A DNA stretch of 64,000 bases, taken from the NCBI GenBank assembly GCA_963750165.1, contig CAVVPN010000003.1, forward strand, positions 512,001 to 576,000, given 5' to 3'. The stretch is from an uncultured Gemmataceae bacterium. GTDB lineage: Bacteria > Planctomycetota > Planctomycetia > Gemmatales > Gemmataceae. Shown piece by piece: positions 19,322 to 59,100 of this stretch. Both the position numbers and the translations under genes were made by a program. Each line of letters starts with the position of its first letter. The first letter of the stretch is position 1. Below the pieces are notes generated by a model that saw only the letters and a program-made list of their open reading frames with translations, was not told the DNA's origin and did not search any database.

Positions 19322-19405
19322 GATTGCAGATTGCTAATCGCAGATGGCAAATTGAAAGACAGACAGGTTGTTGGTTTGTCAATTTGCAATCTGCAATTTG
19401 CAATC
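19322..19405. repeat. Inverted degenerate heptamer arrays (ATTGCAR)n ... (YTGCAAT)n
   Basis: AT-rich intergenic stretch read directly from the sequence. Confidence 0.65.
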
Positions 19406-21998: not shown

Positions 21999-22071
21999 GG
22001 GCGCTTAACTCAGCGGCTAGAGTGCTATCCTCACACGGTAGAAGTCACTGGTTCGAATCCAGTAGCGCCCA
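21999..22071 (+). tRNA. tRNA-Val (anticodon CAC)
   Basis: Acceptor stem GGGCGCT/AGCGCCC, anticodon loop CT-CAC-AC, T-loop GGTTCGAATCC; CCA is not encoded. Confidence 0.95.
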
Positions 22072-22180
22072 CTCAGCTTAAGTCCTTTGCCGAACGCATT
22101 TTAAGCGTACCCATTCGCGGTGAATGGTGCAGCCTGGAAGTGAAAACTTCTCCGTAGTCTACGGAAAACGGGCTTGCATC

Positions 22181-23080
22181 ATGTCCAAACGTACCCCTTC
22201 CCTTTGCCGCCACAAGGCGACCGGCCAGGCCGTCGTGCGGATCGACGGCCGCGATTTCTACTGCGGCGCCTACGGCACCCCCGAAGCCCAGGCCGAGTAC
22301 GACCGCTTGATCGCCGAGTGGCTGAGCAGCGGCCGCTGCCTGCCGGAGGCCGCCGACACGCTGACCGTCAACAAACTGATCCTGGCGCACTGGCGCTGGG
22401 CGGAAGCGTACTATCGTTGGGGCAAGCGCGGCGGTCAATGTCTGCGATATGCCCTGGCAGTCCTCCGCGACCTGTACGGCCACACCCCGGCCAAGGAGTT
22501 CGGGCCGCGTGCCCTGAAAGCGTGCAGGCAACGCATGATCGAAAAGCGCTGGTCCCGCACCTACACGAACACGCAGACGAACCGCATCCGCGGCTGCTTC
22601 AAGTGGGCCGCCGAAGAAGAATTGTTGCCCGGCAGCATCCACCAAAATCTGAACGCCGTGGCCGGTCTTCAGGCTGGGCACACCGAGGCCAGAGAAACCG
22701 AGCGGGTCAAGCCCGTGCCGCAGGAGACGGTGGACGCCACGTTACCGCACCTGCCGAAGCCCGTCCAGGCGATGGTGCGGCTTCAACTCCTGACCGGCTG
22801 CCGGCCCGGGGAGGTGTGCGCCATCCGGCCGGTGGACCTGGACATGAAGAACCCGGCGTGCTGGGTGTACCGCCCCGGCAGCGACCAGGGACCACACGGC
22901 CAGCACAAGACCGCTCATCACGGACACGACCGGCTCATCCTGATCGGCCCGAAGGCCCAGGAGGTGTTGCTCCCGTACCTGGGGACGAAGCTGGACGCCT
23001 ACTGCTTCAGCCCGGCGGAGTCGGAGGCGCAACGCAACGCGGCCAGGAAGGAACGGCGACAGACACCCATGACGCCCAGC
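22181..23080 (+). pseudogene. Tyrosine integrase, C-terminally truncated
   Basis: HKATGQAVVRIDGRDFY, LLTGCRPGEVC and QHKT are present; after TPMTPS the frame runs into unrelated sequence with no HxxR/GH/Y motifs. Confidence 0.85.
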
Positions 23081-23706
23081 GACACGTCGAAGATCATCGG
23101 TTTTCTCCTGTTCGTTCTTGGTAACACGCTTTGCCGTCAGAACCTCCGGAAGGCTACCAATCGTGACGGCAGCGGTGGTGACGGTGGCAGCCCACGCCAT
23201 CGGCGAGTTGGGCGTCCGCGGGTTGTCATTGAGCACGTGGACCCGGCGCTTGAGGTCGCCCCGGCAGGGCGATCCGGTGGTCGCTACTGTGCTGCAACGT
23301 CAGGCCCATGCGCCGACTCCCAGGAAAACCCCCGCGCCCATCCGGGGGCGCCGCGGGAATGGTATCAACGGCCGCTGGCGTTTCAAAAGGGGCGGGGGCA
23401 ACCCCGCCCCGGGATCGCGGCTGACCCAACTGCGGTTTGGAGCGTGATGGCCCCCAATGTCGGGGCTGGGCACCCCGCCCCGGAGTTAGCCCCGCCGCAT
23501 GCTCTGACAGTCACCACCGCAGTGACCCACACTACCCGCGCAGCCAGGGGCGGACGTAGCGGCCTGCGGCTACCCGTTCTGGGCTAGAGTGAGGCCGGGT
23601 CAGCCCCATCCGGGCTGCGGGTCATCGCTTCCGGTTAAGGAAAACCATCACCGTTTGGAAGATGATACTGAGCATCGGCAACGTGAGGCGAGGTCGCTGC
23701 TCGCGG

Positions 23707-24420
23707 TCATATTTCCTTCAGTGTCATGTCACCTTCTTCGGTGCACGCTTTGACGGTGTAATGGGCTCCGTTGTCGAGGCGGTGCTTCTTTGGTGCATCC
23801 CAACCGTTTGCTGTAATGCGGATAGCGTCTCCCGCTGCCAGAGAAAGGCCCGCCGGAGCGTGGACGGCGAAGTGGTCTGCTCGCGGAGGTGATACCGCAC
23901 GAAGCAATTCATCTCCTCCAATTCGGTCGCCTGCTCTAGAAGCTCCCGAATCTCGGTGGGGCTGAAGGACCTCCGTGCCGTCGTATCTTTCCCGATCAGC
24001 TTTCTCAGCTTCCGTCCAAGCCAGCGGCCGAAGCGTCTCGAATGCTCGCTCATCCTTCCACTTCCCTTCCGCCTTCAGCCCGCGGATCTCGGCGGTGATT
24101 CCGTCTTTCTCAACGTGCGTCGGCGCCACGATCAGAACGGGCTTTTTCGTTCACCGCCGCCACGTAAGTCATCGACCTGGAGCTTGTTGCGGTCGAAGAT
24201 CGGCACCCGATGAATGTAGTCCAGATCGATGAGCATGTCACGGGCTTTCAGAAAGTCGCCCGCGTCGCTCGCGGCGCCGGTCTGTTTGTACATTCCTTTC
24301 TGCCTGCGGATGTCCCGCAACTCGGCGGCGGGGAGGTTCGCGTATTCCTGAAGCACGTTGAACATGTTGCCGTGTCGCCCGCCGCTCTTGTGCTGCTTCG
24401 AGTCGCGGCACCGCAAGTGC
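23707..24420 (-). pseudogene. MobF/TraI relaxase-helicase remnant
   Basis: DSKQHKS, LPAAELRDIRRQKG, PTHVEKDGITAEIR, LAWTEAEK, GDAIRITANG, RLDNG, split across frames. Confidence 0.7.
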
Positions 24421-24499
24421 CGACGGATGCCGCGGTCGATGTGACCCAATTATTCTCGCTGCGCGAGAACGCCATCGCCAAGGAACCGGGGGCGCTATG

Positions 24500-26446
24500 T
24501 TAAGCCCTGGCGGTGTGTGTCTCGACTCGGGCGGAAGAATGGTGGCGCAGACTCCCAGGAGTCTTCCCCGTATGTGACTCTGAGCCGGGGAGGTTTTCGG
24601 CCTCATCACTGGTGACCCCGACCCGGGGGCTCCGCCCCCGAGCGCGTGGTTCCCGTTTGCAACAGTGACTCGTGTTTGACCACTGCCGCCTCCCCCGCAC
24701 ACCGCCTCTGGGCACGCCCATTCCTTTCCCGCTCCTGTCCTTTGCGGAGTCCTCCCATGACGGCACCCACGGCCAGACACCCACCCGCCTCCCCGCCTCC
24801 CGGCGCCCAGCCCGCGCAGGCGCCGGCCCACCGCCAGGCCTACCGCCGGCGCAAGACCCGGGCCCAGGACCGGCGCGACGCCCGTCAGCGGCGGGAGGCC
24901 GCCCGGGTCGAGGCCCTCCCCCTGCAACGTCCGCACGCCGCCGGCATCGACGTCGGCTCCCGCTCCCACTGGGTCTGCGTCGGCTTCACCACCGACGCCC
25001 ACTCCGGCTTGATTCAAGAGTTCCCGGGCCACACGGCCGGCCTGCAAGCCGTTGCCGCCTTCCTGCGGGAGCATCAGGTCACCTCGATCGCCCTGGAATC
25101 GACCGGCATCTACTGGATCCCCCTGTACGAACTGCTCCAGGCCGAGGGGTTTGAGGTCCTGCTGGTCGATCCCAGCTACAGCCGCCAATTGCGCGGGCGC
25201 CCCAAGACGGACCGCCGCGACTGCCAGTGGATCTACCGGCTGCACAGCGTCGGCCTGCTGGCGGCGGCCTTCCGGCCCGATGAGCGGACCTGCCAGTTAC
25301 GGGCCTACCTGCGGCAGCGGGCCAACGTGATCCGCCAGGCCAGCCAGCACGTGCAGCACCTGCAAAAGGCGCTGGAGCAGATGAACCTGAAGCTGACGGA
25401 GGTCCTCAGCGACATCACGGGCCTCACCGGGCGGGCCATCCTCCGGGCGATCCTGCGCGGGACGCGGGCGCCGGAGAAGTTGGCCAGGTACCGCGACAAG
25501 CAATGCAAGGCCAGTGAGGTGGAGATCGCCCAGGCCTTGACCGGGTCGTACCGGGAAGAGCACCTGTTCGAGCTGAGGCTGGCCTACGAGGCCTGGCAGT
25601 TCTCCCTGGGGCAAGTGGCGAAGGTGGACGCGCAGGTCGCCCTGCAGTTGGGGCGGATGAAGTGCGACCGCGCCTTGCCGCCGCTGAAGCCGAAGGCGCG
25701 GCCGAAGCGCCGCGCCGACTCGCCCCGCTTCGACGTGCGGACGGCGTTGTACTACGTGGTCGGGTTGGATTTGACGGAGATCGAAGGGGTCAGCGACTTG
25801 ACGGCGCTGACCGTGGTCAGCGAGATCGGCCCGGGGGTGTCGCAGTTCGCGACGGTGAAGCAGTTCTGTAGCTGGCTGGGGCTGTGCCCCAACTGGAAGA
25901 AGACGGGCGGCCGGGTCAAGTCCAGCCGGACGCGCCGGGGGGTGAACCGCGCGGCGCAGGCGCTGCGGCTGGCGGCCCAGAGCCTGCACCACAGCCAGGG
26001 GGCCCGGGGCGGGTTCCTACGGCGCATGAAAGGGCGGCTGGGGGCGCAGGCGGCCGTGACGGCGACGGCGCACAAGCTGGCGCGCATCGTCTACCTGGCG
26101 CTGAAGCACGGCCTGCCGTACGTGCGTCAAAGTCAGGAGGAGTACGAGGCCCAGATGAAAGAGAAGCAGATCAAGGCGCTGTGGCGGAAAGCACGCCAGC
26201 TGGGACTGGACATCGTTGAGCAGGCGGCGGCCGGCGCTCCGGCAGCGGCCGCGGCGTCGGCGCAGGGGTAAAGAAGCGGAAGCGGGTAGCAGAAGTGGTG
26301 GGCCGTGGGGCGGAGGAGGAGGACGAGGAAGGAGAGCCAATCAGACAAGTCCGTGGCCCTGGCGGGGCACCCTGCGCCGAGGAGAACCAGGGAGAAAGAT
26401 CGCCTCGCTGCTCTGGGCAAGCCATCGGTGGGAGGTTCCTTGCAAC
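24500..26446 (+). mobile_element. IS110-family insertion sequence (copy B; ends approximate)
   Basis: ~250-nt structured non-coding leader, transposase, and a 3' tail to GGTTCCTTGCAAC. Confidence 0.6.
24757..26271 (+). CDS. IS110 transposase (different subfamily from copy A)
   Basis: AAGIDVG, ALESTGIYW, KTDRRD, FCSWLGLCP, ATAHKLARIVY. Confidence 0.93.
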   Translation: MTAPTARHPPASPPPGAQPAQAPAHRQAYRRRKTRAQDRRDARQRREAARVEALPLQRPHAAGIDVGSRSHWVCVGFTTDAHSGLIQEFPGHTAGLQAVAAFLREHQVTSIALESTGIYWIPLYELLQAEGFEVLLVDPSYSRQLRGRPKTDRRDCQWIYRLHSVGLLAAAFRPDERTCQLRAYLRQRANVIRQASQHVQHLQKALEQMNLKLTEVLSDITGLTGRAILRAILRGTRAPEKLARYRDKQCKASEVEIAQALTGSYREEHLFELRLAYEAWQFSLGQVAKVDAQVALQLGRMKCDRALPPLKPKARPKRRADSPRFDVRTALYYVVGLDLTEIEGVSDLTALTVVSEIGPGVSQFATVKQFCSWLGLCPNWKKTGGRVKSSRTRRGVNRAAQALRLAAQSLHHSQGARGGFLRRMKGRLGAQAAVTATAHKLARIVYLALKHGLPYVRQSQEEYEAQMKEKQIKALWRKARQLGLDIVEQAAAGAPAAAAASAQG

Positions 26447-26758: not shown

Positions 26759-27139
26759 CTATTTCTTCTTGGCTTCGCGGAATAGCGGAGCCTGAGCCAG
26801 GGTGAAGAGAACGACTTCCTCGCCGGTAACGGTGCTGATGTCGTGATGCAGGCTCAGCACCTTGACGCCAGTGGCCGCCTGGAGCATGGCCTCCAGGAAG
26901 GGGCGGGCGGTTTCAACCAGCTGAGTCCGGACTTGTTTGAGCAGGTCTCTGCCCTTCTCTGGCGGGAGCGTTTTGACCAGTTGTTGTTCGGCCGCGGTCA
27001 ACACCCCCATGAGACGGACCACGAGCAGGTCAGCGATCAGGTGGGTGTGGATGTCCTTGGGACCACGGCCCATGTACTCCAGTTCAAAGCGGCGCATGCC
27101 CTCGGAGACGGCGGCTTCGATCTCCCCTTGCGTTTTCAT
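26759..27139 (-). CDS. DUF2294 (MpsC-like) family protein
   Basis: GEIEAAVS..FELEYMGRGPK..LVVRLMGVLTAAE..R..L..TGVKVLSLHHDISTVTGEEVVLFTL. Confidence 0.9.
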   Translation of the reverse strand: MKTQGEIEAAVSEGMRRFELEYMGRGPKDIHTHLIADLLVVRLMGVLTAAEQQLVKTLPPEKGRDLLKQVRTQLVETARPFLEAMLQAATGVKVLSLHHDISTVTGEEVVLFTLAQAPLFREAKKK

Positions 27140-27349
27140 GGCAGCCTCAACGAGCCTCCGGTGCCAGTCTCAGGTCTGCACGGGAGAAACGCCCGCACCG
27201 GCGGAACGCGGTCCTCGACTCCAACCAACCTGCATATTATCCGACGCGGGGCCATAATCCACTTGTATTTTGGCTCCTGCCCCGTAGAATAGCTTTGAGA
27301 GGGCTGACATCGCTGATTCTCGGTCGGCCCCGAAATCCCTTGATTTGCT

Positions 27350-27460
27350 GTCGTCGGATGACTTGATAAGGGGCAACCCGGCTGAACCGGGGGGTCCGTT
27401 GACGAGTATGCCGGCGTGGTCGGAATACCCAACGGTGTTCGGCCACGCCGGCTTTTTTTT
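27350..27460 (+). promoter_or_regulatory. Conserved structured leader ending in an intrinsic terminator (copy 1)
   Basis: Stem 27410-27422/27440-27452 plus T8, upstream of DUF2294; homologous to 41260-41369. Confidence 0.75.
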
Positions 27461-27507: not shown

Positions 27508-27978
27508 ATGAACCAGTCCAACGCAACCATGGCGCAGCAGATCGCCCAGGCGGCCAGCGCGTTCGAGCGGCGGCGGACCGGACACGGGCCCAGGTCCGTT
27601 ACCGTGGTCCTGAGCGCGGACACGCTGGTGATCACGCTGCACGGCGCCCTGTCGCCGGCGGAAACGGTCCTGGCGAGCAGCCCGGCGGGCGCCGCCCAGG
27701 TCCAGGAGTTTCACCGGCAGTTATTCACGAACTCGTCCGAGGAGTTGCGCCAGGAGATCAAACGGATCACCGGGGTGGAGGTACGCGAGGCCGCCTCGGA
27801 GGTCGAGACGACCACCGGCACCGTCGTCCAGGTGTTCACGACCGGGACCATGGTGCAAGTGTTCCTACTGGCCCACGGGGTGGCGCCGGGCACCTGGAGC
27901 GGGGCCGACCCCGGCGTTTTGGAAAAAGCACCACAGCTCGATGGCGAACTTAAGGGGCAGCGGCCAGGCAGCCTGTGA
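27508..27978 (+). CDS. DUF2294 (MpsC-like) family protein, divergent paralogue
   Basis: FERRRTGHGPRSV..LVITLHGALSPAE..IKRITGVEV..TTTGT..VFLL. Confidence 0.8.
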   Translation: MNQSNATMAQQIAQAASAFERRRTGHGPRSVTVVLSADTLVITLHGALSPAETVLASSPAGAAQVQEFHRQLFTNSSEELRQEIKRITGVEVREAASEVETTTGTVVQVFTTGTMVQVFLLAHGVAPGTWSGADPGVLEKAPQLDGELKGQRPGSL

Positions 27979-30469: not shown

Positions 30470-30694
30470 ATGTTAGTCTTGACGCGGAAAAGTCAGGAAG
30501 CGGTTGTGGTTGGCGGTGCCAACGGCTTCGAGCACCTGCTCAAGGTCACCGTGCTCGACATTAAAGGCGGCAAGGTGAGACTGGGCTTCGAGATCGATGC
30601 CGCCATCCCGATCCATCGCTGGGAGGTGTGGGAACGCATCCGCGGCGGCCACCGGCCGGATGGCCCAGAAGGAGAAGCCCCCATAGGCGAATGA
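30470..30694 (+). CDS. csrA: Carbon storage regulator CsrA
   Basis: MLVLTRK..VTVLDIKGGKVRLGFE...PIHRWEVWERI. Confidence 0.88.
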   Translation: MLVLTRKSQEAVVVGGANGFEHLLKVTVLDIKGGKVRLGFEIDAAIPIHRWEVWERIRGGHRPDGPEGEAPIGE

Positions 30695-40789: not shown

Positions 40790-41083
40790 TCAAGGGGAGG
40801 GCAGCATAGGCCCCTCGCGCACGTACATCTGTCGGCCGCAGAACATCGCCGGTTCGCAGTCCGCATGGTCGGTCAGTTCGTTGTACTCCGCCTGGGTGAA
40901 TACCTCGGGGGGGCCCCGGGTCAGGCAGGTTTTGCGGAGATAGATCTCCTCGCGATCGACCGTGACGTGACGGGGCGCCTCCACCCCCAGGCGCACTTTG
41001 GCACTAACGATCTCGGCCACGACCACGCGAATCTTGCCTGCGATGACGATGGCCTCATGCACTCTGCGGGTCAACACCAACAT
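40790..41083 (-). CDS. csrA: Second CsrA with C-terminal extension
   Basis: AAGGAGG RBS; MLVLTRRVHEAIVIAGKIRVVV..KVRLGVEAPRHVTVDREEIY. Confidence 0.88.
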   Translation of the reverse strand: MLVLTRRVHEAIVIAGKIRVVVAEIVSAKVRLGVEAPRHVTVDREEIYLRKTCLTRGPPEVFTQAEYNELTDHADCEPAMFCGRQMYVREGPMLPSP

Positions 41084-41259
41084 GGCATTCCCTCCTTGAC
41101 GTCTCGGCCGCCGACATGACGGCCGACTCGGCGGACCTCCGGGGAGGGGGAAGGGGGGCGCCCGCACTTCCTTGCGCAGCAATGGCCGTCCCAAGGCCCC
41201 GCCGACCCCTTCCCGCCACCCCGGAATTGCTCCGGCCCGCTCGTCCCGTCATCGGCGAC

Positions 41260-41369
41260 AAAAAAAGCCGACGCGGTGGAACGCTCCAAGGCATTCGACC
41301 GCGTCGGCTTACTCTTCAACGGCCCTCCCTGCGTCGGCGGGTTGGCCTTTGATTAGTCATCCGATGACT
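41260..41369 (-). promoter_or_regulatory. Conserved structured leader ending in an intrinsic terminator (copy 2)
   Basis: The reverse complement aligns along its whole length with 27350-27460; it lies upstream of csrA. Confidence 0.75.
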
Positions 41370-44145: not shown

Positions 44146-47100
44146 TTACAGGTGGGCTCCGATCCGGCTGCGTGCGAGCCCCATGTCCGTGTTGTCCACC
44201 ACGCCGTCGCCGTTGATGTCCATGAAGATGTCGTAGGGCTGGCCGATGGCGTTCCGGACCGCAACCACGTCGGCAGCGTCCACGGCCCCGTGGCCGAGGG
44301 TGTCGCCGTAGAGGACATTGAAATTCTGCGCGAAACCATCGCCCAGCGTATTCCCGGCCGCGTCCTTGACGGCGTCGGGACCGCTGCCGGCCAGCAAGGT
44401 CGAAAACGCGCCAATGGTCAGGGGGCTGATGGTCCAGGTCAGGCTATCGGTGCCCAGACCGCTGAAGCCGGTGACGCTGAGGCCCGCGAGGCTGTTGGCG
44501 TCGGCGGAGGCGATCGGCTTGCTGAAGACGACTTCGATGCCGGTGATCTGCCAGGGCAGGTCGAAGCGTGCCGAGCCGATCAGGTCGTACTTCTGCGAGC
44601 CGAACAGGACGTAGAAGTGCAGCACCGTCGGGGCGGTCGTGTCGATGACCAGGTTGCTGTTGGCGCTGAGCGACCCTGCGGTTCCGGGCGCGGACAGGGC
44701 GAGCAGTGCAGGGTTGGGGTTGTTGTCGGTGTCGGCGATACTGCCGCCCTCGAGCGCCAGGGCGAAGGACGTGGCGGCGTCGAGGCGAGCGCTGTTCTCG
44801 CCGGCACCGACGACGTAGGTGAAGGAGAGGGTGCTCGTGCCGCTGCCGCTGGTGTACTGGGCCGTGCCGCCGGAATTGAGCGCCAGCTGCGGGGTGCCTG
44901 TCACAACCACCGGCTTGCTGAAGGTGACCTGGACCAGGATGGTGGTCCCAATGCCGTAGGTCCCGTTCGCCGTCGTCGTGGTGACGTTTGTCACCGCCGG
45001 GGCGACGGTGTCGATGACCAGGTTGCTGCTGGCACCGAGCGACCCGGGGCCACCGGCGGACGCCAGCGTCAGCACGACCGCGTTCCCATCGGCGTCGCGG
45101 ATGGCGCCGCCATTGAGGGACAGCGCGTTCGAGTCGGTGTAGTCGAGGTGACTGCTGTTCTGGCCACCGGCCACGACGTAGGTGAACACGAGCGTGCTGG
45201 AGCCACTGCCGCGGGTGTACGAGGCCGTGCCGCCAGAATCGAGCGCCAGCTGCGGCGTGCCGGTGACGTTGACGGTCCCGTTGAAGCTCACGCTCATCAG
45301 GATCGTGGCGCCGACGCCGTAGGTTCCGTTCGCCGTCGTCGTGGTGACACTGATCACCGTCAGGGACGAGTTGACGTCCTGCTCGAGGGCAACGGGCGTG
45401 CTGCTCGGCAGAGAGTCGTCCTGGCCGGTATAGGAGGCGGTAATGAAATGCTGGCCGACGGACAGGGTCGAAACGGGGAGCGTCGCCACCCTCCCGACCA
45501 GATCGCTGGTCCCAAGCACGGCCTGGCCGTCGTAGAAGGTGACGCTGCCCGCCGGGACGACACCGCCGGTCGCGGACTGGACGGTGGCCGAGAAGGTGAC
45601 CGTCTGGCCGTAGACCGACCCCGACGGTGCGTCGGAAGTCAGCGTGGTCGTGGTGGCCGAGGCAACGGCGACATCGGAGATGCTGACGGAGCCGTTGAGC
45701 TGCGACGCGTCCGAACCGCCGATGAAGCGGAAGACGAGCCGTCCCGCAAGGCCTTGCAGAGAGGAGATGTCCAGGGTGACAACCTCGGAGCCGCTTGTCG
45801 CGCTCGCCGTAACGGTGACCCCCGTTGCTGCGACAGGCGTCGAGCCGGGCACCACGTCCTGGGCAAAGAACGAGTCGGTCTGCCCCTCAGCCGAGGGGAC
45901 CAGGGTGGCCTGCGTGGTCGGGTCGAGGAGCGAAACTCCGAATGCGTCCGGTGTGGCGCCGGACGGCACGGATTGATCGTACGTGAAGCCGTTGACGGTG
46001 AACGTGAGGGTCGATGCGCCGGTGGGGATGAGGAAGTCCTGGTACAGATCGACTTCGGCGTTCGTCGCGCTCTCGCTGATGACCGCCTGGTGGTTCGCGT
46101 TCACAATCACGTACTGCGGCTCGGACGTGGACCAGGCGGCCAGGTTGTTGGATCCCTGGTTGAACTGACCGTTGGTGAACGGCCCGACCGGCCCGGACGG
46201 CGGCGAGAGCAACAGCGGCTCCCCGTAGGCCGCGATCGGTGTGATGCTCGACTGGGCCAGCGGTAATGTGAACTGCGTGGCGCCGGAGGGTGTGCCCGAG
46301 GTTGTGCCGGAACTGGTTATCGGGGTCTGTGTCGAGGTCAGGGTCGTGGGCGTGGGTGGCGGAGAAGCGGCGTTCGCGACCGCCGCCACAGTGCCTGGGT
46401 TCGAAATGGCGGCGACCGTCCCGGTGCCGGTGGGTTGAGCGGTCTGGTCGATCGGGTCGAGCGCCAGCAGGTCTGCGAGTTGCGGGATGCGCCGCACCCC
46501 GGGCGTGATGGTGAGGTCCATCAGGTCGTGGGGTTCGGCGGAGTTATCGACGTCGGGCAACCCGAGCACGTGGCCCATTTCGTGTTCGACAACGGTGAGC
46601 AAATCGACCGCGCCGTAGGCCGGGCTGCTGCTGGTGGCGTCGAACTCAGTCGGCACAACGGTCTGGCTGAATACGGAGTTGTCCTCCGGGGTGGGGTCGA
46701 TGAACCATCCCGTGCCGGCTGCATCGGGGCTGATGGTGACGACGTTGACCGTGGTCGAGCCGACCTCATCAGCCGGCAGGGTGCCGATCTGGTAGGTGGC
46801 GGTTTGCAGCGCCTGGATCTGCGCGGCGGACGCGCCGGCCGCGGCCCAGTCGGCGATGGCCTGGGCGACGACGGTGCCGAGGATGTTCGGGGTGACCGTT
46901 TCGGACGCCGGGACCGTGCTCGGCGCCGGGGTGGGATCTTGGAGTAGAGCCTGTTGGGGGAGGGGTTGTGGGCTGGGTGCAGCAATGCGCACGTGGTAGT
47001 GCCCGTTGTGCCCAGAGGACCAACTAACGAACCCGACAAAGCCACTGGCAGGGTCATGCCAGAAGTAAGGGTCGTCGTAGAAAATCTGACCGACCGTGGG

Positions 47101-50100
47101 TGCCGTAGCATTCGCTTGGGCGTTCAATTGCTTAAAGTCGTTGAACTGGTTGATCAACAATGGCCTCACCACGTTCAGGTAGACTGGGTCGTAGGCCAGC
47201 AAACCCAGATCGTACAGCAAGGAGAGTTTGGCCTTGGCATTCGAACCCAGCAACTCGGTGGCGGGAACGGGCAGCCAGCCTTGCCAAACGCCCGTTCCGA
47301 TAAACAGGCTCTGAAGTGTGTCGGCCACAGAGCGGACCGCGAACACGTTCGTTCCTTGCGCATTCGTTCCGTAGTATTCCCACAAGACGCCAACGCCGGG
47401 CACAGTGCCCGAGGGATCTTGTGCCGCCGCGAGGCCGTAGAGCGCGGCGGTCGGTCCAGTCTTTTGATTGAACCACTGGAAGAACAAATGCGCGTTGGGG
47501 GCAATTCCTTCAGCGACATGGATCGGCCCTGTCGGATCAACGTCGAATTCGATACCACCTTGATGATCGTGGTGGGAAGGGTTCTTTTTCCCCGGCGCCC
47601 AGAACGGGCCACCCTGGGACAGACTGATGTCGCCGATCTGGAAATTATAGAAATCGAACGGATTGTAAGTGGCCACCTTTGTGACGGCAGCCAGCACCTG
47701 TCCGATCCATTGCGTTCCCCACGTGACGGAACTGTTGGTGAGGGCTGGGGAGTGGAGATTGTAGAAGCCGGAGTAAGGGCTCGCTTGAGCCAGTTGATTC
47801 CAAACCTGGGCGTTCGCCGCATTGAGGTAGGACAAGGTCTGCAGCGGGTCTTGAGAGGCTGTGACAACGCCCGATTGCGCTGCGACCGTGTAATTACCGT
47901 TTTGTCCGGTCACCAGAGCCGCTTGGAACAGCTTGATTGCATAAATCGTTGCGTCATCCGGTTGACCGTTCACCACAAGTCCCTCTGGCTGCGGTGTGTA
48001 TGGGGCGGGGAACGGGACCATGCTACGTGCGCCGGGAATTGTCGTCATTGTCGTCGGCGCGGCGGTGGTCTCGGGATAACCGAGGTAGCGGAGACGCTGT
48101 TGGACGCGGTAGACGTCGAGGGCATAGTCGAGGACGAAATTGGAGCCAGATTGGGGGGAAACGTCGATGGCGTTATTCGCCGGACCGACCGCTCTCGTGT
48201 CGAGCGAAAACGAAGAGTAATCGGGAGAACCGTTGTTGCCGATGCGGACGTACAGAGTCCCGTATTGACGGCCGTACCCAGGATAGGTAAAGGAAAAGGT
48301 CCCCCACACCCAGGTGGCAGGAGGAATGATGCCGTTCCGCAGTCCCAACACCTCCTGATCCGTGATCTTGGGAGCGAGGTAGAAAATGCCGGTGCTTGCG
48401 AAACTTGAGCTGGCGGTAGGCTGCAGGCCTGGGCTGATGAGGTTCGGCGGCTGAACAATGTCGAATTGGGCCGGCATGGTGTTTGGGGCGGGCGGAGTGT
48501 ACAGCAAGACGTCGGCGCCCGAGGCGTCAAAGGAATTGATGTCGAGAATGAAATCGGACGCGCCGTGAATCAGATCCTTCAAATTCTCTTCGACGATGTC
48601 TCCGTAGCCGTGTGGTCCCGAACCGGTGTCTACCACGATGTTATCGTTGGCAAACTGCTGGGAGCCGGACGTTTGAAGGTACTCGGGGCTGCCGGTGTCG
48701 CTGTCGCCGGAAGTGACGCCGACGAGGTACGACTGCATGGCCAGCCCGTGCGGGAGGCCGCCGATGGCGATGGGCGGCTCATCCCCAGGCGCCGGGTTGA
48801 CGGGCTCGAACGACGGGGCGTACGAATCGATCAGGCTCGGGTTGTACACGACGGACGGCGGCAACTGATAGTTGGCATCGACGTCGATGGCCGGATTGAC
48901 CGCGTCGATGCCCTGGACCGTCAGGATTCCCGGGGCTTCCTGGAGGACTTGCGCGATGTTATCAGGCAGGCCCGTGTTGTTCAGTGTGTCACTGATCTGC
49001 CGGATATCATACACCATCAGCGCCCCGGACCCACCCGTGACCGGGATGCCCGCGAAACTGGCGTACAGGTAGTTGCCGTCAGGCGAGACGGCAAGATCGA
49101 ACGGATACCCGTTGGGGATGGTGCGCGTCGCCGCAACGAGCTTCGGGTCGGTGAATGGGTTGGCGATGATGCCAATGGTGCTGCCGGCGGGGTTGAAGGC
49201 CGGGACGCCCTGGTTGTGGCTCGGGATGTTCGGATCCGGAAGGTTGTAGCCGGCGACGAAGGCGTACTTCCCGTCCGGTGTAATGGCGACGGCGCGCGCG
49301 TTGTTGACTTCGAACTCGTCATTCGCATTTCCCTGGAAACTGAACCCGGTAAAGTTGGCCGTCGTGCCCCCCTTGGTGATCAGCCCGAAGGCCTGGTCGT
49401 TGTGCACATAGTCGGTGAATGTGATGCTGTCGTCAGGCCCGGCGGTGACGCCGAACGGGTCCTGGCCCGCGTCGATCGAGTTCACCAACTGCCAGGATGG
49501 GATTTTGTTAGAACCGAGGGTCAGGTCGATGACGAAAATGTGGCCGTTGGCCGGCACGGGCGGCGTGGGCGGCAGTTCCTCGGTAGGGAGCGTGTTGGGC
49601 ACAGCGACGTAGAGCCGGCTGCCGTCGCTGTTGATCGCCAGGCCGCGTAACCCGTACGGGGCGGGGTTGATCCCCCCGAACTGCTGGACGACGGCGTTGG
49701 TCGGATCATCGAGGTTGATCGTGTATCTCAGGGTGTTGTAATGGGGCGACGCCGGGTCAATGTCGATGACGTAAACGAGTGGGTGTGACTCGTCGGTCAC
49801 GTAGGCGTACTGGTCGGCGGGATCGATCGTGATCTGGTACGGGGCGGCGTAGGGTGGAAGCCCGGTGACAGTGGCGACTTGCCGGAGCGCCATGGCATCG
49901 ACCACCGCGATACCCTGATAACCAAGCTCCGTGACGTACGCCCGGGTGTTGTCATGGGTCACCGCCACGTCTCCGGGGAAACTACCCGAGCCCAGCGAGA
50001 TCTCCGCCACGAGCTGGTTGAAGTTCGGGTTGGCGGTGGTCTGGGTGGGGTCATTTAAGTTCACCAGCACGGGCCGTGCGTCGAGCACCGCGAGCTGACC

Positions 50101-53100
50101 CAGGCTGTTCTGGCCCGAGCTGTATTGGGCCGCAAACAGGTAGCCGCCGGTGGGAGTCAGACTCGGCGCGTTGCTGACCAGTTCCTCGTTGGTGTCCGGG
50201 TCCAGCTTGGTAATGTCCACCGTCAGCGTGCCCACGGCGAGCGTCGGGGGCACCTGGACCTGGACCAGGGTGTCGGTGGGGGAGCCGACGACCTGAGCCG
50301 CCATGGGCGTGCCTTGACCGGGCGGGTTGAACCAAACGTTGGGGGTGGTCCCGCCGGGGCCCAACAGGTTCTGCCCCGAAATGTCCAGCAAGGGAGTCGT
50401 CTGGTTGAAGTCCAACTTCAGTGAGGTAATCTGGGCCACCTGTGGCTCGTAGCTCGGGTCCGGCATGAAGGTCGTCTGGAAGGTGTTGGCGGCGTCGGCG
50501 TTGATGCCGATCTGCTGCACCTGCGCGAGGGGTGGGCCGAGGACAGGGATGGAGACAAACTTGAACGTGTTCGGGCCGACGGGCGCCGTCAGAAGCAGCG
50601 TGGTCAGGGCGGCGGTGGTCGCGGTCAGGGCGTAGACGCCCGCGGTCGTGCCAACCAGGAATGCTCCGGTCGCGGTGAAGCCGGCGCCAAGGGTGATGCT
50701 CGCGGTCAGGAGGGCGGTGTTGACGGCAACCGCCGCCGCGACGTAGATGCCCGGTAGCCAGATGTGAGGGTACTGCGAGGCCGGCCGGGCATACCCGTCG
50801 GTGCCGATCACACCGCTGTCCGTTTGCAGCCAGAGCGACACGGTCCCGCCGCTGCCGTCCGGCATGCTTCCGTATCGGTAGAAGACCACGGTCGTGCCCG
50901 GGGTCACACCAGGCATCGGAATCGCCACTTCGACTGGTTGATTCAAGCTGGCACCACCAAAATCCAGATTAAACGGGCTGGCGGCCGTGACCCAGTTCGG
51001 CAGGGTAAGAGGTAGTGTCCCCTGGTATGGGGTGATGCTCACCTGTGCCGGCTGACTCAGCGCTCCTGGCGGTATCTTCACCAGGGCGCCGTTGGCCGCG
51101 CTCACGACCCCGCCGACCGGCCCAACCGTTGCCGGGCCCACCAGGGGCGGGCTGCCCGTTACCGGAACCACCAATTCCTGGCCGTTCTGGATGACCGTCA
51201 CCTTCGCGCTACCCGGCGCGACCACCGTGACCAGCCCGTCGGCACTTACCTGAGCGACGGCGGTGTTACTCGAAAAGTACAGCGCGCCAGAGGCGGCCTC
51301 GCTGGCGTCCTGGCCGTCCTGGGTAACTTCCAGTTGACGGCTGCTCCCGGGCGCCAGGGCGAGCGCCTGGGGATAGACTGCCAGGCCGGTGTAATCGGGT
51401 GTTGCGTCAAGGTCCGGGTCGTCAACGTTCACCACCGTCGCCGCCTGGATGCCGTGGCTGGAAACGACGAGCGCGGCGCTGCCCGGCGCGACCGCGGTGA
51501 GCTGACCCGTCGCGGCCACCGTCGTCACGGTCGGGTCGGTGGTCTGAAACGTCACGTAACTGGCCGGCAGCGCCACGCCCTGCTGGTCCGCGAAGTCGCC
51601 GGTGATCGTCATCTGCTGGGTGTCGCCCGGGTTGAGTTCCGGTGCGCGATCGGTGATGTCCAGCCCCACGAGTGCGGCGCTGCTCACCGTCACCGACACC
51701 GTGCCCGCGGGCGAGGTGCCGTACCCGTCGTCCGCCTGGAACTGGAAGCTCGCGGGGCCAGTGTACCCCGGCGCGGGTGTGAACGTCACCGTGTGCCCGT
51801 CCGGGTTCAGCACGGCTGTGCCGTCCTGAGCGCTCATCACCCGATAGTAGAGCGGATCGCCCAGCGGGTCGGTCGCGAGCGTCAACAGATCGACCGTCGT
51901 CGGCAAGTCCTGGTGCGTCAGCGCCTGACCGGCCGTGACGGACGGCGGCTGGCTCGACTGGAACCCCAGGTCGGCCGCCAGCAACTGCTCGTCGGCCGCG
52001 CTCACCGTCCCGTCCAGGTTCGCATCCGCCCCGAGCACATACCCCGGCTGACCCACCGACGTACCCAGCGCCGCAGCCAGCAACTGCCCGTCCACCCCGT
52101 TCACCGTGCCGTCGCCGTTCACGTCCCCGGCCACGAACGGCCGCAGCGAGTACCCGCCCGAGGTCCCGTTGGCACTCGGCACATCGAGCAGCTCCAGCCC
52201 CTCGCTCGTGATCGTGAACAGGGCGAACGAACCATTCGGACCGGAACTCGTCATCAGCGGCGTCAGCCCGGCGATCACCGGAATGCCCGGCTGGAGCGAA
52301 CTCCCGGCGGTGGGCGTCACCTGCACTCCAAGGTAGATCTCGCCGCTGTTGGTGGACCCGATCTCCGAAGCGCGGAACGTGAATACGTACCGGTCCGTGC
52401 CGCCCGCGGAGAGCGTGCCGGTCTGCGTACTCGTCAGGAATTGACCCGAAGTGCCCAGGTTTGCCGTCAGCGGCAGCACCAGCGGGGCCGGGGTGTACTG
52501 CACCACGGCGCTGTCACTGGCCACCGGCGAAACGATCAGATCCAGGAGGTGGGTGCCGGCCGAGTACCCGTACCGGCTCGACTGCCCCAGCGCGATGTTC
52601 CGCGCCGACATCAGATTGCCGGCCGAATCGTAGCTGTAAACTACCTGGCTCCCGTCGGACGCAGTGATCGTGGCGATGCGCCCTTGCGCGTCCGTCACAA
52701 ACGTAAGCGTGTCGCCGGTGGAACTGGTGATGCCGCCGTTGGTGAAGTACAGTACCGTCCCACCCGGCGTGGTTTCCTCCACGAGCTTGCCGGTGGCGCT
52801 CAGGTCGTACACGGTGCCGTCCGGACCTGTCAGCGTGTACGCCGCGCCGCTGAATTGTCCGCTGGCCGGGTTGTACGGCACCGCCGTCTTCAGGTCATAG
52901 AACCGATCGCCTGCCTTCACCAGGACACCGCCCGCGGAGGAGAGCATCCAGTTCATGCCCGGATCCGCCTGCCAGGCCGGAGTGTAGTACGTCACACCCG
53001 TTTGCGTGTGCGCCACCGGCTCGAAGGTGAACCCCACACGGCTGCCGTCCGGCAGCGTCAGGTACAACCGGGTTCCGACCCGGAACGGGTTGTACACACC

Positions 53101-56100
53101 CTGATCTTCCGACCCCGATGGCGGGACGTTGGTCTGGACGGCGAAATCGGTGTTGGCCAGCCGCCAGCCGTTGCCGAAGGTGCCGGACTGGTTGGCGGTG
53201 AGCGAATCGTACTGACGGGTCAGGGTCACCGACACACCGCCGAGCTGCACCGTCAGGTCGGACTCAGTGCGCAGGTACTGTGTGGACTTGGCCGCCGTGT
53301 CCACTTCGACCACGGCTTCGGTCTGGCTGGTGCGGCCGCTGATGTTCGTTGCCGTCAGCCGGAGTTCGTAGAATCCGTTCTCCAGGGCGGTCGGGTCGAA
53401 CGACGCCAGGGCGCCTGAGAACACGTTGGCGTTGCCCTGCGCCAGGGTGGTGAAGTCGGTGCTCCCGAGCGGCGCGAAATCCAGCACCCACGAATCCAGG
53501 TTCGTGTCGCTGATCGTGCCGACGACGCTCGTCGGAGCCTTCAGCGGGTCCGCGCTCAGGTGCGGGTCGAGTTCCACGACCGGCACGGCAAGGTCGTTCG
53601 GGTCGCGCACCTTGAGCACGGTGGCGTACTGGCCGACGAGCCCGTCGCCGTCGGTCGCCGATGCGTTGACGGAGTAGCGACCGGGGGTTGGTGGGGTGAA
53701 CGTCCCGCGGCCCTGGCTGTCGAGGGTGAGCACCTGGCCGTTCACCTCGGCGGTGAGCCCGGCGATCGGCGCGACGCTGGCGGCGATGACGTGGATCAGC
53801 ACCGGCGACCCGGGCAGGTCCGGGAAGCTCGGGGTCAGGACGACCTGGACGCTCGGCGCCATCGAGGCGAGCGTGGACCGCAGGAGCACCGTCTGACTGG
53901 TGCTCGTCTGGCTGTCGGCGGCGGAGAACGTCACCGAGTAATCACCCACCTGGGTCGGCCCGGGCGTCCAGGTGAACTGACCCGTTTGCGCGTTCAGAAC
54001 GGCCCCTTCGGGCATTCCGAGGGCCGAGTAACTCAGGGTCAGTCCCTGGTTCAGCTCGGTGCCCACCAGTTGGAAGTTGAGTGCTTGACCGACGACCGCG
54101 GAGTGGCCGATCACACTCAGGGTCGGGGTGCGGTACGTCGGATCGATGTGGACCTGGACGGAGATGGTGTCACTCAGCCCGGTCGCATCGGTGGCACTGA
54201 ACTGGACCGTGTAGTCGCCCGCCTGAACGTAGTTCGGGGTCCACTGGAACTCGCCCGAAGTATTGTTGAACGTCGCGCCGGTCGGGAGCCCGGTGGCGCT
54301 GTAGGCAACCGGGTCGCCGTTCGGGTCGCCGGCGACGACGGCGAACTGGATCGGCGTCCCCTCGCGCCGGACTGCGGCACCAGCGGCACCAGGGTCGGGG
54401 CCTGGTTCAGGTGCGCGACCGTGACGCTCACGGTGGTGGACGCGCTCAGGTAGCCGTCGCTGGCGGTGACGCCGATGGTGTAGTTCCCCTCCTCGAAGGT
54501 GTTCGGCGTCCAGGTGATCGTCCCGGTGCGCGGGTCGATGGCCGCGCCGGGCGGCAGGCCGGTGGCCGCGTAGGTGAGCGCGTTGCCGTCCGCGTCCGTG
54601 GCGGCCACGGTCACCGAGAAGGGCTGGCCGGCGACGACCGCCTGGGGGTTGACCGGCGGGAACATCGGCGCATCATCGCTGGCGCGGACGGTGATGTGAA
54701 CCGTCTGCTCGTCACCCAGCACCGGACCGGCGCCATTGTTGCCGTTATCGGCCACCTGGAAGACCACCGTGTCCATCCCGGCGTCGGCGTCGGCGGGCGT
54801 CCAGGCGAACACCGCCTGACCGTACGTGTTCGTCGGAGTCAAGGTCGCGGTGCCCGGCAGGCCCAGCGCGCTGAAGGTGAGCGGATCCTGGTCGCCGTCG
54901 GTGGCCTGGAGGGTGAACTGCAACGGCTGACCGATGACGGCCACCTTGTCGCCGGTGGGGACCAGGTGGGGCGGTTCGTTGGGCACGTTCACCGAAAGCA
55001 CAAATGACTGGCTCGTGGACAGGATCGCATACCGGCCGTTCCCGTCGCCGTTGTCGGTGGCGGTCAGGGTGATCGTGTAGTTGCCGCGGTCGGACAGCCC
55101 CGGCGCGAACTGGAACTGCCCGGTCCCGTCGCCGTTGTCCATGAACGTGGCGAACGTTGGCAGGCCGGTCACGGTCAACTTCAGCGGGTCGCCGTCCGGG
55201 TCGGTGGCCGTCACCGGCAGCGCCAGGGTCGCGCCCCCGTTCACGGTCTGGTTGGCAATGGTCGGAACGACCGGGGCCTGGTTAACGTTCAGCACCGTGA
55301 TCGGCACCGTGACGCTGGTGCTGAGCGGGGTGCCGGTGCCGTCGCCGTCGTTGGTGGCGGTGAACGTGACGTTGTACGTCCCGGCGTCGGTGTAGCCCGT
55401 CCGCCAGTTGAACTCGGCCGTGACCGGGTCGAACGTCGCGTCGGCGGGCAACCCGCTGACGGTATAGGTGATCGTCGGGTTGGTGCCCTCGAGCGGGGTG
55501 AGCGTCCCGTTCGCGGTCCGGTCCTGGGGGATGAACCCTGGGTTATTCGGGTCCGTGGCGAACGCCAGGAACGTGATGTCCTGGCCTTCGGCCACGCGCC
55601 ACCCGCCCAGGTTGTCGAACACCGGGGGTGCGTTCACGTTCAGCACTGTGAACGTGGTCGTCACAGTGGTGGACTGCTGCCCGTTGTTGACGGTGAACGG
55701 GACCTGGTAGACGCCGTGCTGATCGTACCCTGGGGTCCAGTCGAACACACCCGTGTTCGGGTCCAGGTACGCGCCACCTGGCAGGAAGGCGCTCGAGTAC
55801 GTGAGCGCCAGACCGTTCGGGTCGGTCGCCGCGAGCGGGATGTGGATCGACTCGCCCTCGAGCACGGTGCGGTCTGCCGGGCGCTGGATTGCCGGCGGCT
55901 GAACGGTCGGCGCGATGAGCAGCGTTGTAGTTTCGCTCACCGTGCTGATCCCGTCGCTGACGAAGAACGTGACGTTCAGGTACGTGCCCGCCTGCCCGGC
56001 GGCCGGGGTCCAGGTGAGGGTCTGTTGCTGCTCATCGAACACCGCGCCGGGTGGCAGGTTGTCGGCCCAGTAGACGAGCGGGTTGTCGGCGGGGTCGGTG

Positions 56101-59100
56101 GCGCTGACGGCGATCTGGAGCTGTTGCCCTTCCTGGCCGTTCTCGATGGCTGGCAGCGAGGTGAACACCGGCGGCGCGTTCACGCCGGAAACGGATACGG
56201 TGAACGTCTGCTGGGCGTGCGAACCGCGGGAGTTGTACACCTCGACGATCACCGAAGCCTGACCCGGGCTGGCTACGGTCGGCGTCCAGGTGATGAGGCC
56301 CGAGCGCGGGTCGATCGTCATCCCGGCCGGACCCTGGTACAGCAGGTAGCTCAGCGCGGCGTCGTTCGGGTCGTGGGCCGCGACCTGATACTGGTATTCC
56401 TGGCCGACGGCCCCCGTCGCGACCGGCTGCGAGTCGATGATCGGCGGCGCGCTCGGGGCCGGCATGGCCAGCGCGCCGGTCTGGAACGACGGGCGCAGCC
56501 CGGATGGGTCCGAGAACGTGATGGTGATCGGCGCGGACGTCTGGCCGGGCGTCAGCCGCCCGCCCGCCACCGCGCTGCTGAGGTCCACCCACCAGGTCCC
56601 AGTGGGCGACTGCTGGCCCGGCAGGTTGAGCACCCGGGCGTCGGTCGGGCCGAGCGAGTCGAAGGTCAGGACGAACGGCGCCAGGATGTCGTAGCCGGTG
56701 ATGTTGGTCAGGGTGATGTCGTACGAGTACGTCTGGGTGACCGCGTCCGCCCGGCCGTTGGCGAAGTGGATGGTCACGAGCGCGGTGGCGTCGGCCACCG
56801 CGCGAAAGTCGGTGGCGTAAGGGGAAACGAGGGTCAGGCCGTTGGCGGCCTCGACGCCGATGCCGACCGTGAGGGTGTAGTGGTCCGGGGCGAGGGAATC
56901 GAACGTCAGGACAGCCGTCCGGGTGGCCGCGGCGTAGGTGACGCCGGAGATGGTGATCGGGCCGGCGTTGTCTCCGACGAGGGTGTAGTTGGCCGGGTTG
57001 GTGACCGAGTTCGGGTCGGTCGGGCTGTCGGCCAGCATGTCCTCGTCGAACGTGACGCTCAGGCTCCCCAGGGGCAGCGCCACGAGCCCCTGCGCCGGCG
57101 GGTTGGTGCTCGACACCAGGGGCGGCTGGATCGGGCTGATTACGTCGATCTGGTTCGTCTGGCTCAGGAACACCCGGCCGTCGGCGCTGGTCTTGAGTTC
57201 GTCGCCGCGGGTGCCGCCGGTCGCCACCGCGACCTGCTGGAGGGTGGCCAGATCGACCATCGAGAGTTCGGTCCCGGACGCGCCCGGGTCCGGCTCATCG
57301 TGCGACACGAACAGAAGCCCGTCGAGCTTGCTCCCCGAAACGCCGAAGGCGATCGAATCGACCGGCGCGGCGAACTGGAGCATCACCTGCGGTGAAACCG
57401 CCGACTGAGGCTTGGTCAGGTCGAACCGGACCACGTCGTTGGTGCTGTCCGGCCAGGCGGCGGCCCACAGGCTGCCGTCCGGGGCGAACGCCAGGCTGCC
57501 GACCCGGATGTCGCTGTAGTGGCGGAACGTGTGCGCCACCGGGTCGAAGATCTCGATCCCGCTGCCGGACGACACGTAAATGAGGCCGGTGCCGGGCTGG
57601 ATCGCGAGGCTCTGGGTCAGGCTGTCGCCCCACTGGCCAAGCACCGCGACGGTGGTCGGGTTCAGTTCCACCAGGGGGCCGCCGCCGGTGGTGGCCCAGA
57701 CGTTCCCGGCGCTGTCGAGCGCCATGTCGTAGATTGGGAACGGCTCGGTCGCCAGCGGCGTGCCGGCCGTGCCGCCGCCGCTGGGGAACAGGAACAACTG
57801 ATTGCGGGCCGGGCCGCCGCTGGCGAGGACGGTGTGGTCGGGCAGCGGCAGCAGCGCCAGCGGGCCGATGCCGGCCTCGCTCTGGCCGATGCCGGTGGCG
57901 AACGCCTGGGCCGAGAACGGCTGGAGCACGCTCTTGAACTCGGACGGATTGCTCGCCGGGGTCGAGGCCGGGATCCCCTGCTGGGCCTGGGTGAACAGCG
58001 CGTTGGTGGACTGACCGGTGGGCTGGGCGGGAGTACCGAGGCTCGTCTGGGTGGTCGTGACCGTGGGGAGGGTGCCCAGGTTCGCACCCGAGCCGGAATC
58101 CGGAACCAAGAGCGGCGGCGGCGGTGGCTCGACGTTGCCGGCGTTGTCGGTGGCCAGCGCCAGGAACTGGTACATGTGCCCGGCCTGGCCGTTGTAGATG
58201 CCGCTGGTGGCGGTGGTCTGGTCGAGCCAGATCTGGTAGTCGCCGCCGTCCTCGGACACGAACACGGTCACCGATTTGACCCCGGACCCGCCCGGGTCGT
58301 CGGTGGCGGTCCACTGGACGTTGTAATCGGACCCGCCGGGCGTGATGGGGGCGACCGTCAGGGTCGTGGTTGGGGCCGTGCCGTCCACGGTGCTGGTGGC
58401 GGTGTTGGTGGTTTGCGGGGGCGCGTTGTTGAGCTGCACCTGGGCCTGGGCGCTGATGGTCGTGCCGGTGGCCAGCCCGGCCAGCGGCTGGACCGTGTAC
58501 GTGACGAACCCTTCACCGGCCCCGCTGGCGTCATTCGGCGGGAGCAGCCCCCTGGTCGGGTTCTGGATGAGCGTACCGGTGTTCGGGTCGATCGCCTGGA
58601 TGAGCCAGGTGATGGCGTCGCTACTGATGTCGATGCCGGCCGAGACGCGGAGGATGAACCCCTTCGTATCGGTGTAGTCGAAGTCGCCCTGGAACGAGCC
58701 CAGTCCCGCCGGAATGTTGACCGACAGATCCCCGATCTGGAGGCTGCCGAGGCGGAAGCTGCGCGGGTCCAGCTTCGGGTCGAGCTGTTCAATGATCTGG
58801 ATCTGATTGGTTGTGGAGGACGCGCCGGCGGGGTTGGCGAACTGGATCGTGTACGGCAGCGCGTGGCCCACCGGGACAAACTGCTGGACCCCGAACCCGT
58901 ACGGGCCGGTGATCGTGTCCTGGCCCTGGGCAGCCGTCGCGGAGAGGTACTGGGTCAGGTTCGGCGGCGCGACCGTGACAAAGTTCGGGTTCTCGGGGTG
59001 GGTCACGTCGGAACCGGCCGAGTCGTCGTCGCCCGGACCGGCGTCAAAATCGTTGGCGTACGGGACGTACACGTTGAACGCCTCGAAGTGGGTCGGCTGG

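Follow-up and report, generated by a model that had tools for sequence, protein, structure and literature searches.

The window analysed here, a stretch of 64,000 nt from an uncultured Gemmataceae bacterium (genome G000, 93% complete), contains two copies of an RNA element with a predicted terminator. As the preliminary description of this DNA had claimed, both copies lie 5' of a gene in the same orientation: copy A precedes a divergent type II MpsC/DUF2294 gene (ATG 27508) and copy B a CsrA-family gene (ATG 41083) (Table 1). According to the alignments, the type II protein carries a Glu in place of the near-invariant Lys68 of the family and has lost the C-terminal D..GE motif. A conserved type I mpsC gene is situated on the other side of copy A, and its product is our candidate for a trans-acting antiterminator. 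The csrA gene starts 177 nt past the T run of copy B, and a long G/C-rich hairpin (41134-41226) is located between the terminator of this copy and the csrA start codon.

The surrounding DNA shows several further features. The left side of a stress-gene island is marked by a tRNA gene, an IS110 transposase and an integrase-like ORF for which Pfam gave no match (21999-26271). Inside the island, a gene for ribosomal protein S14 (PF00253; 28457-28693) follows two genes after the attenuated type II mpsC, and a second CsrA-family gene (30470-30694) is found after a single-domain receiver gene, the genome having seven CsrA matches in total. The region 44146-60680 is occupied on the minus strand by two very long ORFs of 3322 and 2168 aa, the first of which contains, by eye, YD-like repeats and dockerin/Ig-like stretches. 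An AT-rich palindromic intergenic repeat at 19336-19400 was rejected as a further copy of the RNA, as it has no terminator and scored weakly on two RNA models (25.7 and 17.8 bits).

Table 1. Features of the two RNA copies, their neighbouring genes and the second island. Coordinates refer to the window unless a locus or genome is named.
Feature	Position	Strand	Remarks
Possible sigma70-like promoter, copy A	27263..27290	+	TTGTAT, 16 nt, TAGAAT by eye; weak; not called by consensus scan
Copy A, attenuator RNA	27350-27460	+	Terminator stem 27410-27452, 8 T at 27453-27460
Copy A, conserved rod (antiterminator state)	27350..27416	+	Predicted fold, covariation; CM 81.7 bits (copy in training set)
Copy A, intrinsic terminator (predicted)	27410..27460	+	5' arm doubles as 3' strand of P1
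MpsC/DUF2294, divergent type II	27508..27978	+	First gene after copy A; PF10057 90 bits
MpsC/DUF2294, conserved type I	26759..27139	-	Points away from copy A, no attenuator ahead; PF10057 122 bits
Copy B, attenuator RNA	41368-41260	-	Terminator stem 41308-41267, 7 T at 41266-41260
Copy B, conserved rod (antiterminator state)	41303..41368	-	Predicted fold, covariation; CM 79.1 bits (copy in training set)
Copy B, intrinsic terminator (predicted)	41260..41308	-	Stem 41308-41267 and 7 T
CsrA-family gene	40790..41083	-	PF02599 66 bits; first ATG-start gene with Pfam match behind copy B
Receiver-MpsC fusion	L246:13313-14167	-	Second island of the same genome
mpsC split over two frames	G000:C3:2014907-2015241		Second island of the same genome

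Two predicted folds of the window copies

The sequence blocks that the preliminary description had reported as shared are all present in copies A and B, and in the same order. Its claim of a covarying terminator stem is borne out by two compensatory changes (G-C to A-U and U-A to C-G), and that of an inner helix which changes while staying paired by one (G-U to C-G). However, the description had overlooked the antiterminator helix, which forms between the (G)UCGG block at the 5' end and the 5' arm of the terminator, CCG(A/G)C. From its base upward, the predicted rod of copy A consists of P1 (27352-27357/27411-27416), a 3x3 purine-rich internal loop and an ACU/AGU helix, followed by more short helices and a variable apical hairpin.

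To judge the stability of these structures, 200 dinucleotide shuffles were used as controls. With the terminator, copies A and B reach -62.8 and -58.9 kcal/mol (z of -5.8 and -6.9), and none of the 200 shuffles was equally stable in either case. Without the 3' arm of the terminator, each copy instead forms one long irregular rod at -37.1 (A) and -28.0 kcal/mol (B), with z of -3.5 and -2.4 and equally good folds in 0 and 5 of 200 shuffles, respectively. Since the terminator and the base of the rod compete for one strand, the 5' arm of the former, the two structures are, by prediction and covariation, mutually exclusive, and the terminator is predicted to outcompete the rod by default. A promoter consensus scan found nothing, while a -10-like hexamer similar to that ahead of copy A occurs at the same position ahead of three other copies in the genome.

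A covarying RNA family in Planctomycetota

A 15-base core pattern was searched in 150 genomes of the same family and matched 47 of them, with a maximum of 10 matches in one genome. Fifteen of 28 aligned pattern loci are true copies, and the other 13, none of which reached E≤1, were discarded as chance matches, as were three one-mismatch matches in coding sequence of G000. Copies A and B, 14 of the 15 true loci (one with a long insertion was omitted) and 40 extra pattern matches from multi-copy genomes were then combined in an alignment of 56 rows, all of which finish, by eye, in a stem and a T-rich tail. In this alignment, pairing in the rod amounts to 93%, with double changes in 12 of 23 pairs and a covariation score that none of 500 shuffles matched, and the terminator is likewise 93% paired, with double changes in 15 of 19 pairs; these values apply to rows in which the 3' core columns are fixed by the pattern, related genomes are not independent and the 3' strand of P1 is common to the terminator. 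When the rod pairing was slid along the alignment as a control, only 26-51% of positions were paired. A rival 5' hairpin, GUCRU/AUGAC, is predicted in the terminated folds; nonetheless it received no covariation support in planctomycetes, its 74.6% pairing being at shuffle level.

A covariance model built from 40 planctomycete rods (R1) located eight copies in G000, distributed over the window and a second island (C3:1.94-2.03 Mb). It was positive in 51 of the 150 family genomes and gave 245 matches including those of G000, with up to 22 per genome. Beyond the family, four clear and three marginal positives were obtained among 150 genomes of the phylum; a strict 5' pattern with no match in 300 such genomes was too strict, since R1 found copies there. 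A pattern scan of GTDB yielded at least 132 stretches; among the 80 listed, 76 have planctomycete titles from several orders and classes, and 72 of the 73 scored are strong copies. Strong copies also occur in assemblies labelled delta proteobacterium and Gemmatimonadetes (L118, L119 and L155), with planctomycete-like neighbours; these copies may reflect either transfer or mis-binning. No clear plasmid copy of the RNA was found by blastn.

These results bear on the preliminary description in several ways. The two copies on which it was based are both real, but the genome holds eight, in two islands. The covarying homologues that it predicted were found, with rod and terminator covarying over the 56 copies. 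It had also matched the element to no riboswitch or RAT/ANTAR consensus, and a comparison with Rfam gave no family at gathering score for the element. In the whole window, tRNA was the only Rfam 15 family at gathering score, and at E≤10 copies A and B gave unrelated sub-threshold matches only (e.g. miRNA precursors) and no riboswitch family. Full-text searches, covering result listings and the starts of abstracts, gave no description of the RNA; the motif catalogues of the Breaker laboratory are largely placed in supplements, where it may carry another name. A term look-up in the main text of PMC11109978, PMC8632094 and bioRxiv 10.64898/2026.10.21.760802 likewise gave no description.

Seven of the eight copies in G000 were traced to a co-oriented ORF starting close after the terminator, and the eighth to an mpsC-like remnant. 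Besides this remnant, the first genes encode type II MpsC (twice), CsrA, an Hsp20-like protein (under the Pfam cut-off), a ferritin-like protein and two lipoproteins, one lacking a Pfam match and the other with an overlapping DUF2934 ORF ahead of it. At other planctomycete-type loci, all seven traced copies are found 5' of a co-oriented gene. Type II MpsC-like proteins are encoded in L080, in L130 (a short ORF whose similarity ends after about 45 residues) and, as the second gene, in L155; the remaining targets are Hsp20, NifU, DnaK and an ORF that was judged by eye to be AMP-ligase-like. The L119 copy sits ahead of a sigma70 factor. Taken as a sample and not a census, the planctomycete targets read as a general stress regulon. 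No match to DabA was found in G000, which excludes a DAB pump as a target of the local copies.

Association with MpsC in two phyla

All nine PF10057 matches of G000 are located inside the two islands carrying the eight RNAs. One of them is fused to a receiver domain, suggesting that MpsC acts as an output domain, as in REC-ANTAR proteins. Type I MpsC gave a confident alpha/beta structure model (pLDDT 93). No solved relative was found, and Foldseek returned nothing at E≤0.001; the best structural comparison was with VIA (Z 6.3, rmsd 3.1, 91 aligned), and RbfA gave Z 5.1 (rmsd 4.0, 88 aligned). No relative of MpsC was detected in viral contigs, while type I MpsC used as query against plasmids retrieved three records.

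MpsC is present in 80 of the 150 family genomes, namely in 47 of 51 RNA-positive versus 33 of 99 RNA-negative ones (a hand count which ignores kinship), and in all family genomes with at least two RNA matches. As RNA and mpsC reside on the same islands, linkage and kinship inflate this co-occurrence. Outside the family, four of five RNA-positive genomes have MpsC, two of them in the family layout given below. The RNA-positive genomes with no MpsC match (G334, G339, G354, G369 and G057, four of them from the family) carry a single RNA match each and are 72-94% complete. Conversely, no RNA match was obtained in 33 of the 80 MpsC-positive family genomes, nor at 19 of 30 Bacillota mpsC loci. Among the 150 RNA matches listed of the 245, hand counting gave 30 that are head-to-head with type I mpsC and 22 that immediately precede a type II mpsC.

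In Bacillota, MpsC was found in 65 of 201 genomes. When the planctomycete-only model R1 was applied to the 30 best Bacillota mpsC loci, 12 matches at E<1 were obtained in 11 loci. Ten of the 12 lie within 300 nt of mpsC, a zone that makes up about a fifth of the flanks, and eight of these ten are situated just downstream of mpsC on the same strand. In Acetoanaerobium, the best R1 match in 51 kb directly follows mpsC and has the same core and an overlapping terminator. Thirteen of 15 aligned Bacillota copies possess a complementary arm and a T run, while two have no clear terminator, and the three copies that were folded all show the same predicted switch between rod and terminator. A joint alignment of planctomycete and Bacillota copies shows covariation in 11 of 16 pairs. 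The corresponding joint model (R2) was positive in 11 of 151 whole Bacillota genomes, comprising six training genomes, two new ones with the RNA tied to mpsC (G585 and G573), two other MpsC-positive genomes and one chance match in a genome without MpsC. A pattern match in Ruminococcus (L129) and the Bacillota model match in G529 were dismissed as chance.

The Bacillota genes behind the RNA encode PEP carboxylase (twice), PurE (twice), biotin carboxylase, SbtA, DUF4914, a CO_dh-beta and POR_N oxidoreductase and a membrane protein with no Pfam match on the part tested. Most of these families use or import CO2 or bicarbonate. In Anoxybacillus, only a weak match (E 0.21) was found ahead of sbtA. 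Rfam 15 gave nothing at gathering score on eight Bacillota loci except two c-di-AMP riboswitches elsewhere in L299 (668-810 and 2162-2302); these flank the pair of mpsC and RNA and may hint at a signal.

The position of the RNA relative to genes is not random, as had been predicted: every traced copy lies 5' of a co-oriented gene, save one Bacillota copy that is convergent to mpsC. This complete copy with its terminator (L256:1299-1400) is placed on the opposite strand and aimed at the 3' end of mpsC, unlike the others. Between Planctomycetota and Bacillota the targets change entirely while mpsC persists. The RNA represents a real and covarying attenuator family that is uncatalogued and, in both phyla, linked to MpsC/DUF2294. 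Of the earlier proposal, a new cis-regulatory RNA gating the regulon of this island, the uncatalogued attenuator is retained, but the restriction to one island was too narrow for an element that is multi-copy in Planctomycetota and has homologues in Bacillota.

The RNA reaches up to 22 copies per genome, its terminator is strong, and the islands carry an integrase-like ORF and IS110. These features could also indicate an independently terminated small RNA, or a mobile repeat, without control over the downstream gene. We regard this as very improbable, because traced copies are directed at a downstream gene, formation of the conserved rod is incompatible with that of the terminator, and in Bacillota the RNA is present at one or two copies before functionally coherent genes.

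Proposed control of read-through

The arrangement resembles several known attenuation systems. RAT sites of BglG, SacY and LicT are also irregular stem-loops which overlap the 5' arm of a terminator and are OFF by default, and the regulator gene often lies just upstream, similar to the order of mpsC and RNA. However, RAT is about 30 nt long with another consensus, whereas the MpsC-linked rod measures 55-80 nt, and the sugar PTS targets of BglG and LicT are not shared; the CAT RNA-binding domain (PF03123) has no match in G000. The ANTAR regulators AmiR, NasR/NasT and EutV are comparable in that a compact output domain, either free-standing or joined to a receiver domain, acts on many leaders per regulon. 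In contrast, ANTAR sites consist of two short hairpins with six-base loops, while the MpsC-linked RNA is one long rod by fold and covariation, and MpsC (PF10057), with its alpha/beta model, is a different family from ANTAR (PF03861), whose two matches in G000 are both outside the two islands. The order of regulator, terminator and genes seen at eight Bacillota mpsC loci is that of HutP and GlpP of Bacillus subtilis, and hutP, glpP and licT all show the regulator followed by the terminator. HutP and GlpP are nevertheless unrelated to MpsC and bind short sequence elements instead of a covarying rod. By this comparison, the MpsC-linked RNA would work like RAT/LicT, HutP or ANTAR attenuation but belongs to none of these systems, there being no CAT_RBD protein and no twin hairpins, and the ANTAR genes lying outside the islands.

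The mpsABC and ndhF-ybcC-ybcI operons also combine mpsC, an inorganic-carbon transporter and a terminated upstream RNA. In the sections of the source reports covered, such RNAs ahead of ndhF are tabulated, with no explanation given, as RsaX05 in S. aureus (PMC2790875) and ncr181 in B. subtilis (PMC2965217). Their likeness to the MpsC-linked RNA is one of position, and the ndhF leader of S. pettenkoferi, the sole Staphylococcus leader scored, gave no match at E≤5.

Orphan and validated riboswitches of Rfam 15 (e.g. Na+-I/DUF1646, c-di-AMP and ZTP) are similar in being 5' leaders in which an aptamer-like conserved domain overlaps a terminator, but none reaches the gathering score on any tested MpsC-linked copy. 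As the main alternative, the rod could itself be an ON-type aptamer whose ligand, a small molecule or an ion, reports low inorganic carbon, pH or general stress, in which case mpsC would merely be a frequent regulon member or neighbour. Conserved unpaired purines in symmetric internal loops, the overlap of the conserved domain with the terminator, the coherent CO2/bicarbonate targets in Bacillota and the few RNA-positive genomes without an MpsC match are compatible with this explanation, as is the normal growth in air of S. aureus without mpsC, reported in the sections covered of PMC6689103. Nevertheless, we consider it rather unlikely. The rod is unbranched, with no multi-stem junction or pseudoknot seen, type I mpsC mostly adjoins the RNA rather than lying behind it, and a single metabolite would need to explain SbtA, PurE and PEP carboxylase as well as Hsp20, DnaK and ferritin. 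Furthermore, bicarbonate as ON ligand would switch on uptake when it is plentiful, opposite to S. aureus mpsA, which falls at 5% CO2 according to the same sections of PMC6689103; a protein inhibited by the signal would resolve this conflict.

Another protein might bind the rod, with MpsC upstream as sensor or partner. CsrA deserves mention here, since the 5' end of the RNA carries a nearly invariant GGA, csrA is itself a target and CsrA matches are frequent in G000; the two ANTAR matches and the resemblance of the purine-rich loop to loop E of 5S rRNA, a possible site for a ribosomal protein, are further candidates' credentials. Even so, both G residues of GGA take part in P1, and the 5' hairpin needed to expose the motif, although predicted in the terminated folds, is the one without planctomycete covariation. 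In addition, two of five Bacillota genomes having both mpsC and the RNA gave no CsrA match, the ANTAR genes are outside both islands and the RNA does not have the twin-hairpin form. Control by such another binder therefore seems improbable to us.

As to whether a ligand or a protein controls the attenuator, the evidence leans toward a protein, MpsC/DUF2294. The RNA tracks mpsC over two phyla while the targets change, mpsC mostly lies beside or before the RNA, and the receiver fusion suggests an output role. On these grounds we somewhat prefer the reading that type I MpsC is an RNA-binding antiterminator with the RNA as its site. The dispensability of MpsC for MpsAB transport and the fall of mpsA at 5% CO2 (PMC6689103) are in line with this reading. 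The attenuator would be OFF by default, the terminator, predicted to be far more stable than the rod, capturing the 3' strand of P1. Read-through would then require the rod to be held during passage of the polymerase, and since one arm of the terminator, the 5' one, is part of the conserved rod, any binder of the rod would turn the gene ON. Most likely, the rod would be held by type I MpsC/DUF2294, the conserved form, acting as LicT, HutP or ANTAR proteins do. In Bacillota, MpsC and the RNA as a pair may control genes for CO2/bicarbonate uptake and carboxylation, with MpsC active at low inorganic carbon, whereas in Planctomycetota it may have been multiplied into a stress regulon, in which the divergent type II MpsC behind an attenuator may provide feedback. 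The normal growth of the S. aureus strain without mpsC in air (sections covered of PMC6689103) is unexpected for an obligate antiterminator of mpsAB; this objection is tempered by the tested Staphylococcus ndhF leader, which the model does not match.

In the sections covered, PMC6689103 found MpsC dispensable for MpsAB transport and left it without an assigned function. This protein can be examined with a concrete and cheap test, an in vitro termination assay with a 70-nt RNA and a 126-residue protein, and either outcome would be new, namely an antiterminator family or a riboswitch class in at least two phyla. To our knowledge, the sensing of CO2/bicarbonate for the control of uptake and carboxylation in non-autotrophic bacteria is largely open. 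As a tentative extension, which we hold to be possible but doubtful, MpsC/DUF2294 may sense CO2/bicarbonate (or pH) directly and release the rod at high inorganic carbon, and would then be, in Bacillota, the missing regulator of the genes for bicarbonate uptake and carboxylation. In Planctomycetes, receiver fusions and a non-binding feedback paralogue may have turned it into the basis of a general stress regulon that relies on transcription termination where a stress sigma factor would otherwise act. In Planctomycetota, the RNA makes a large stress regulon, with up to 22 sites per genome, readable from sequence.
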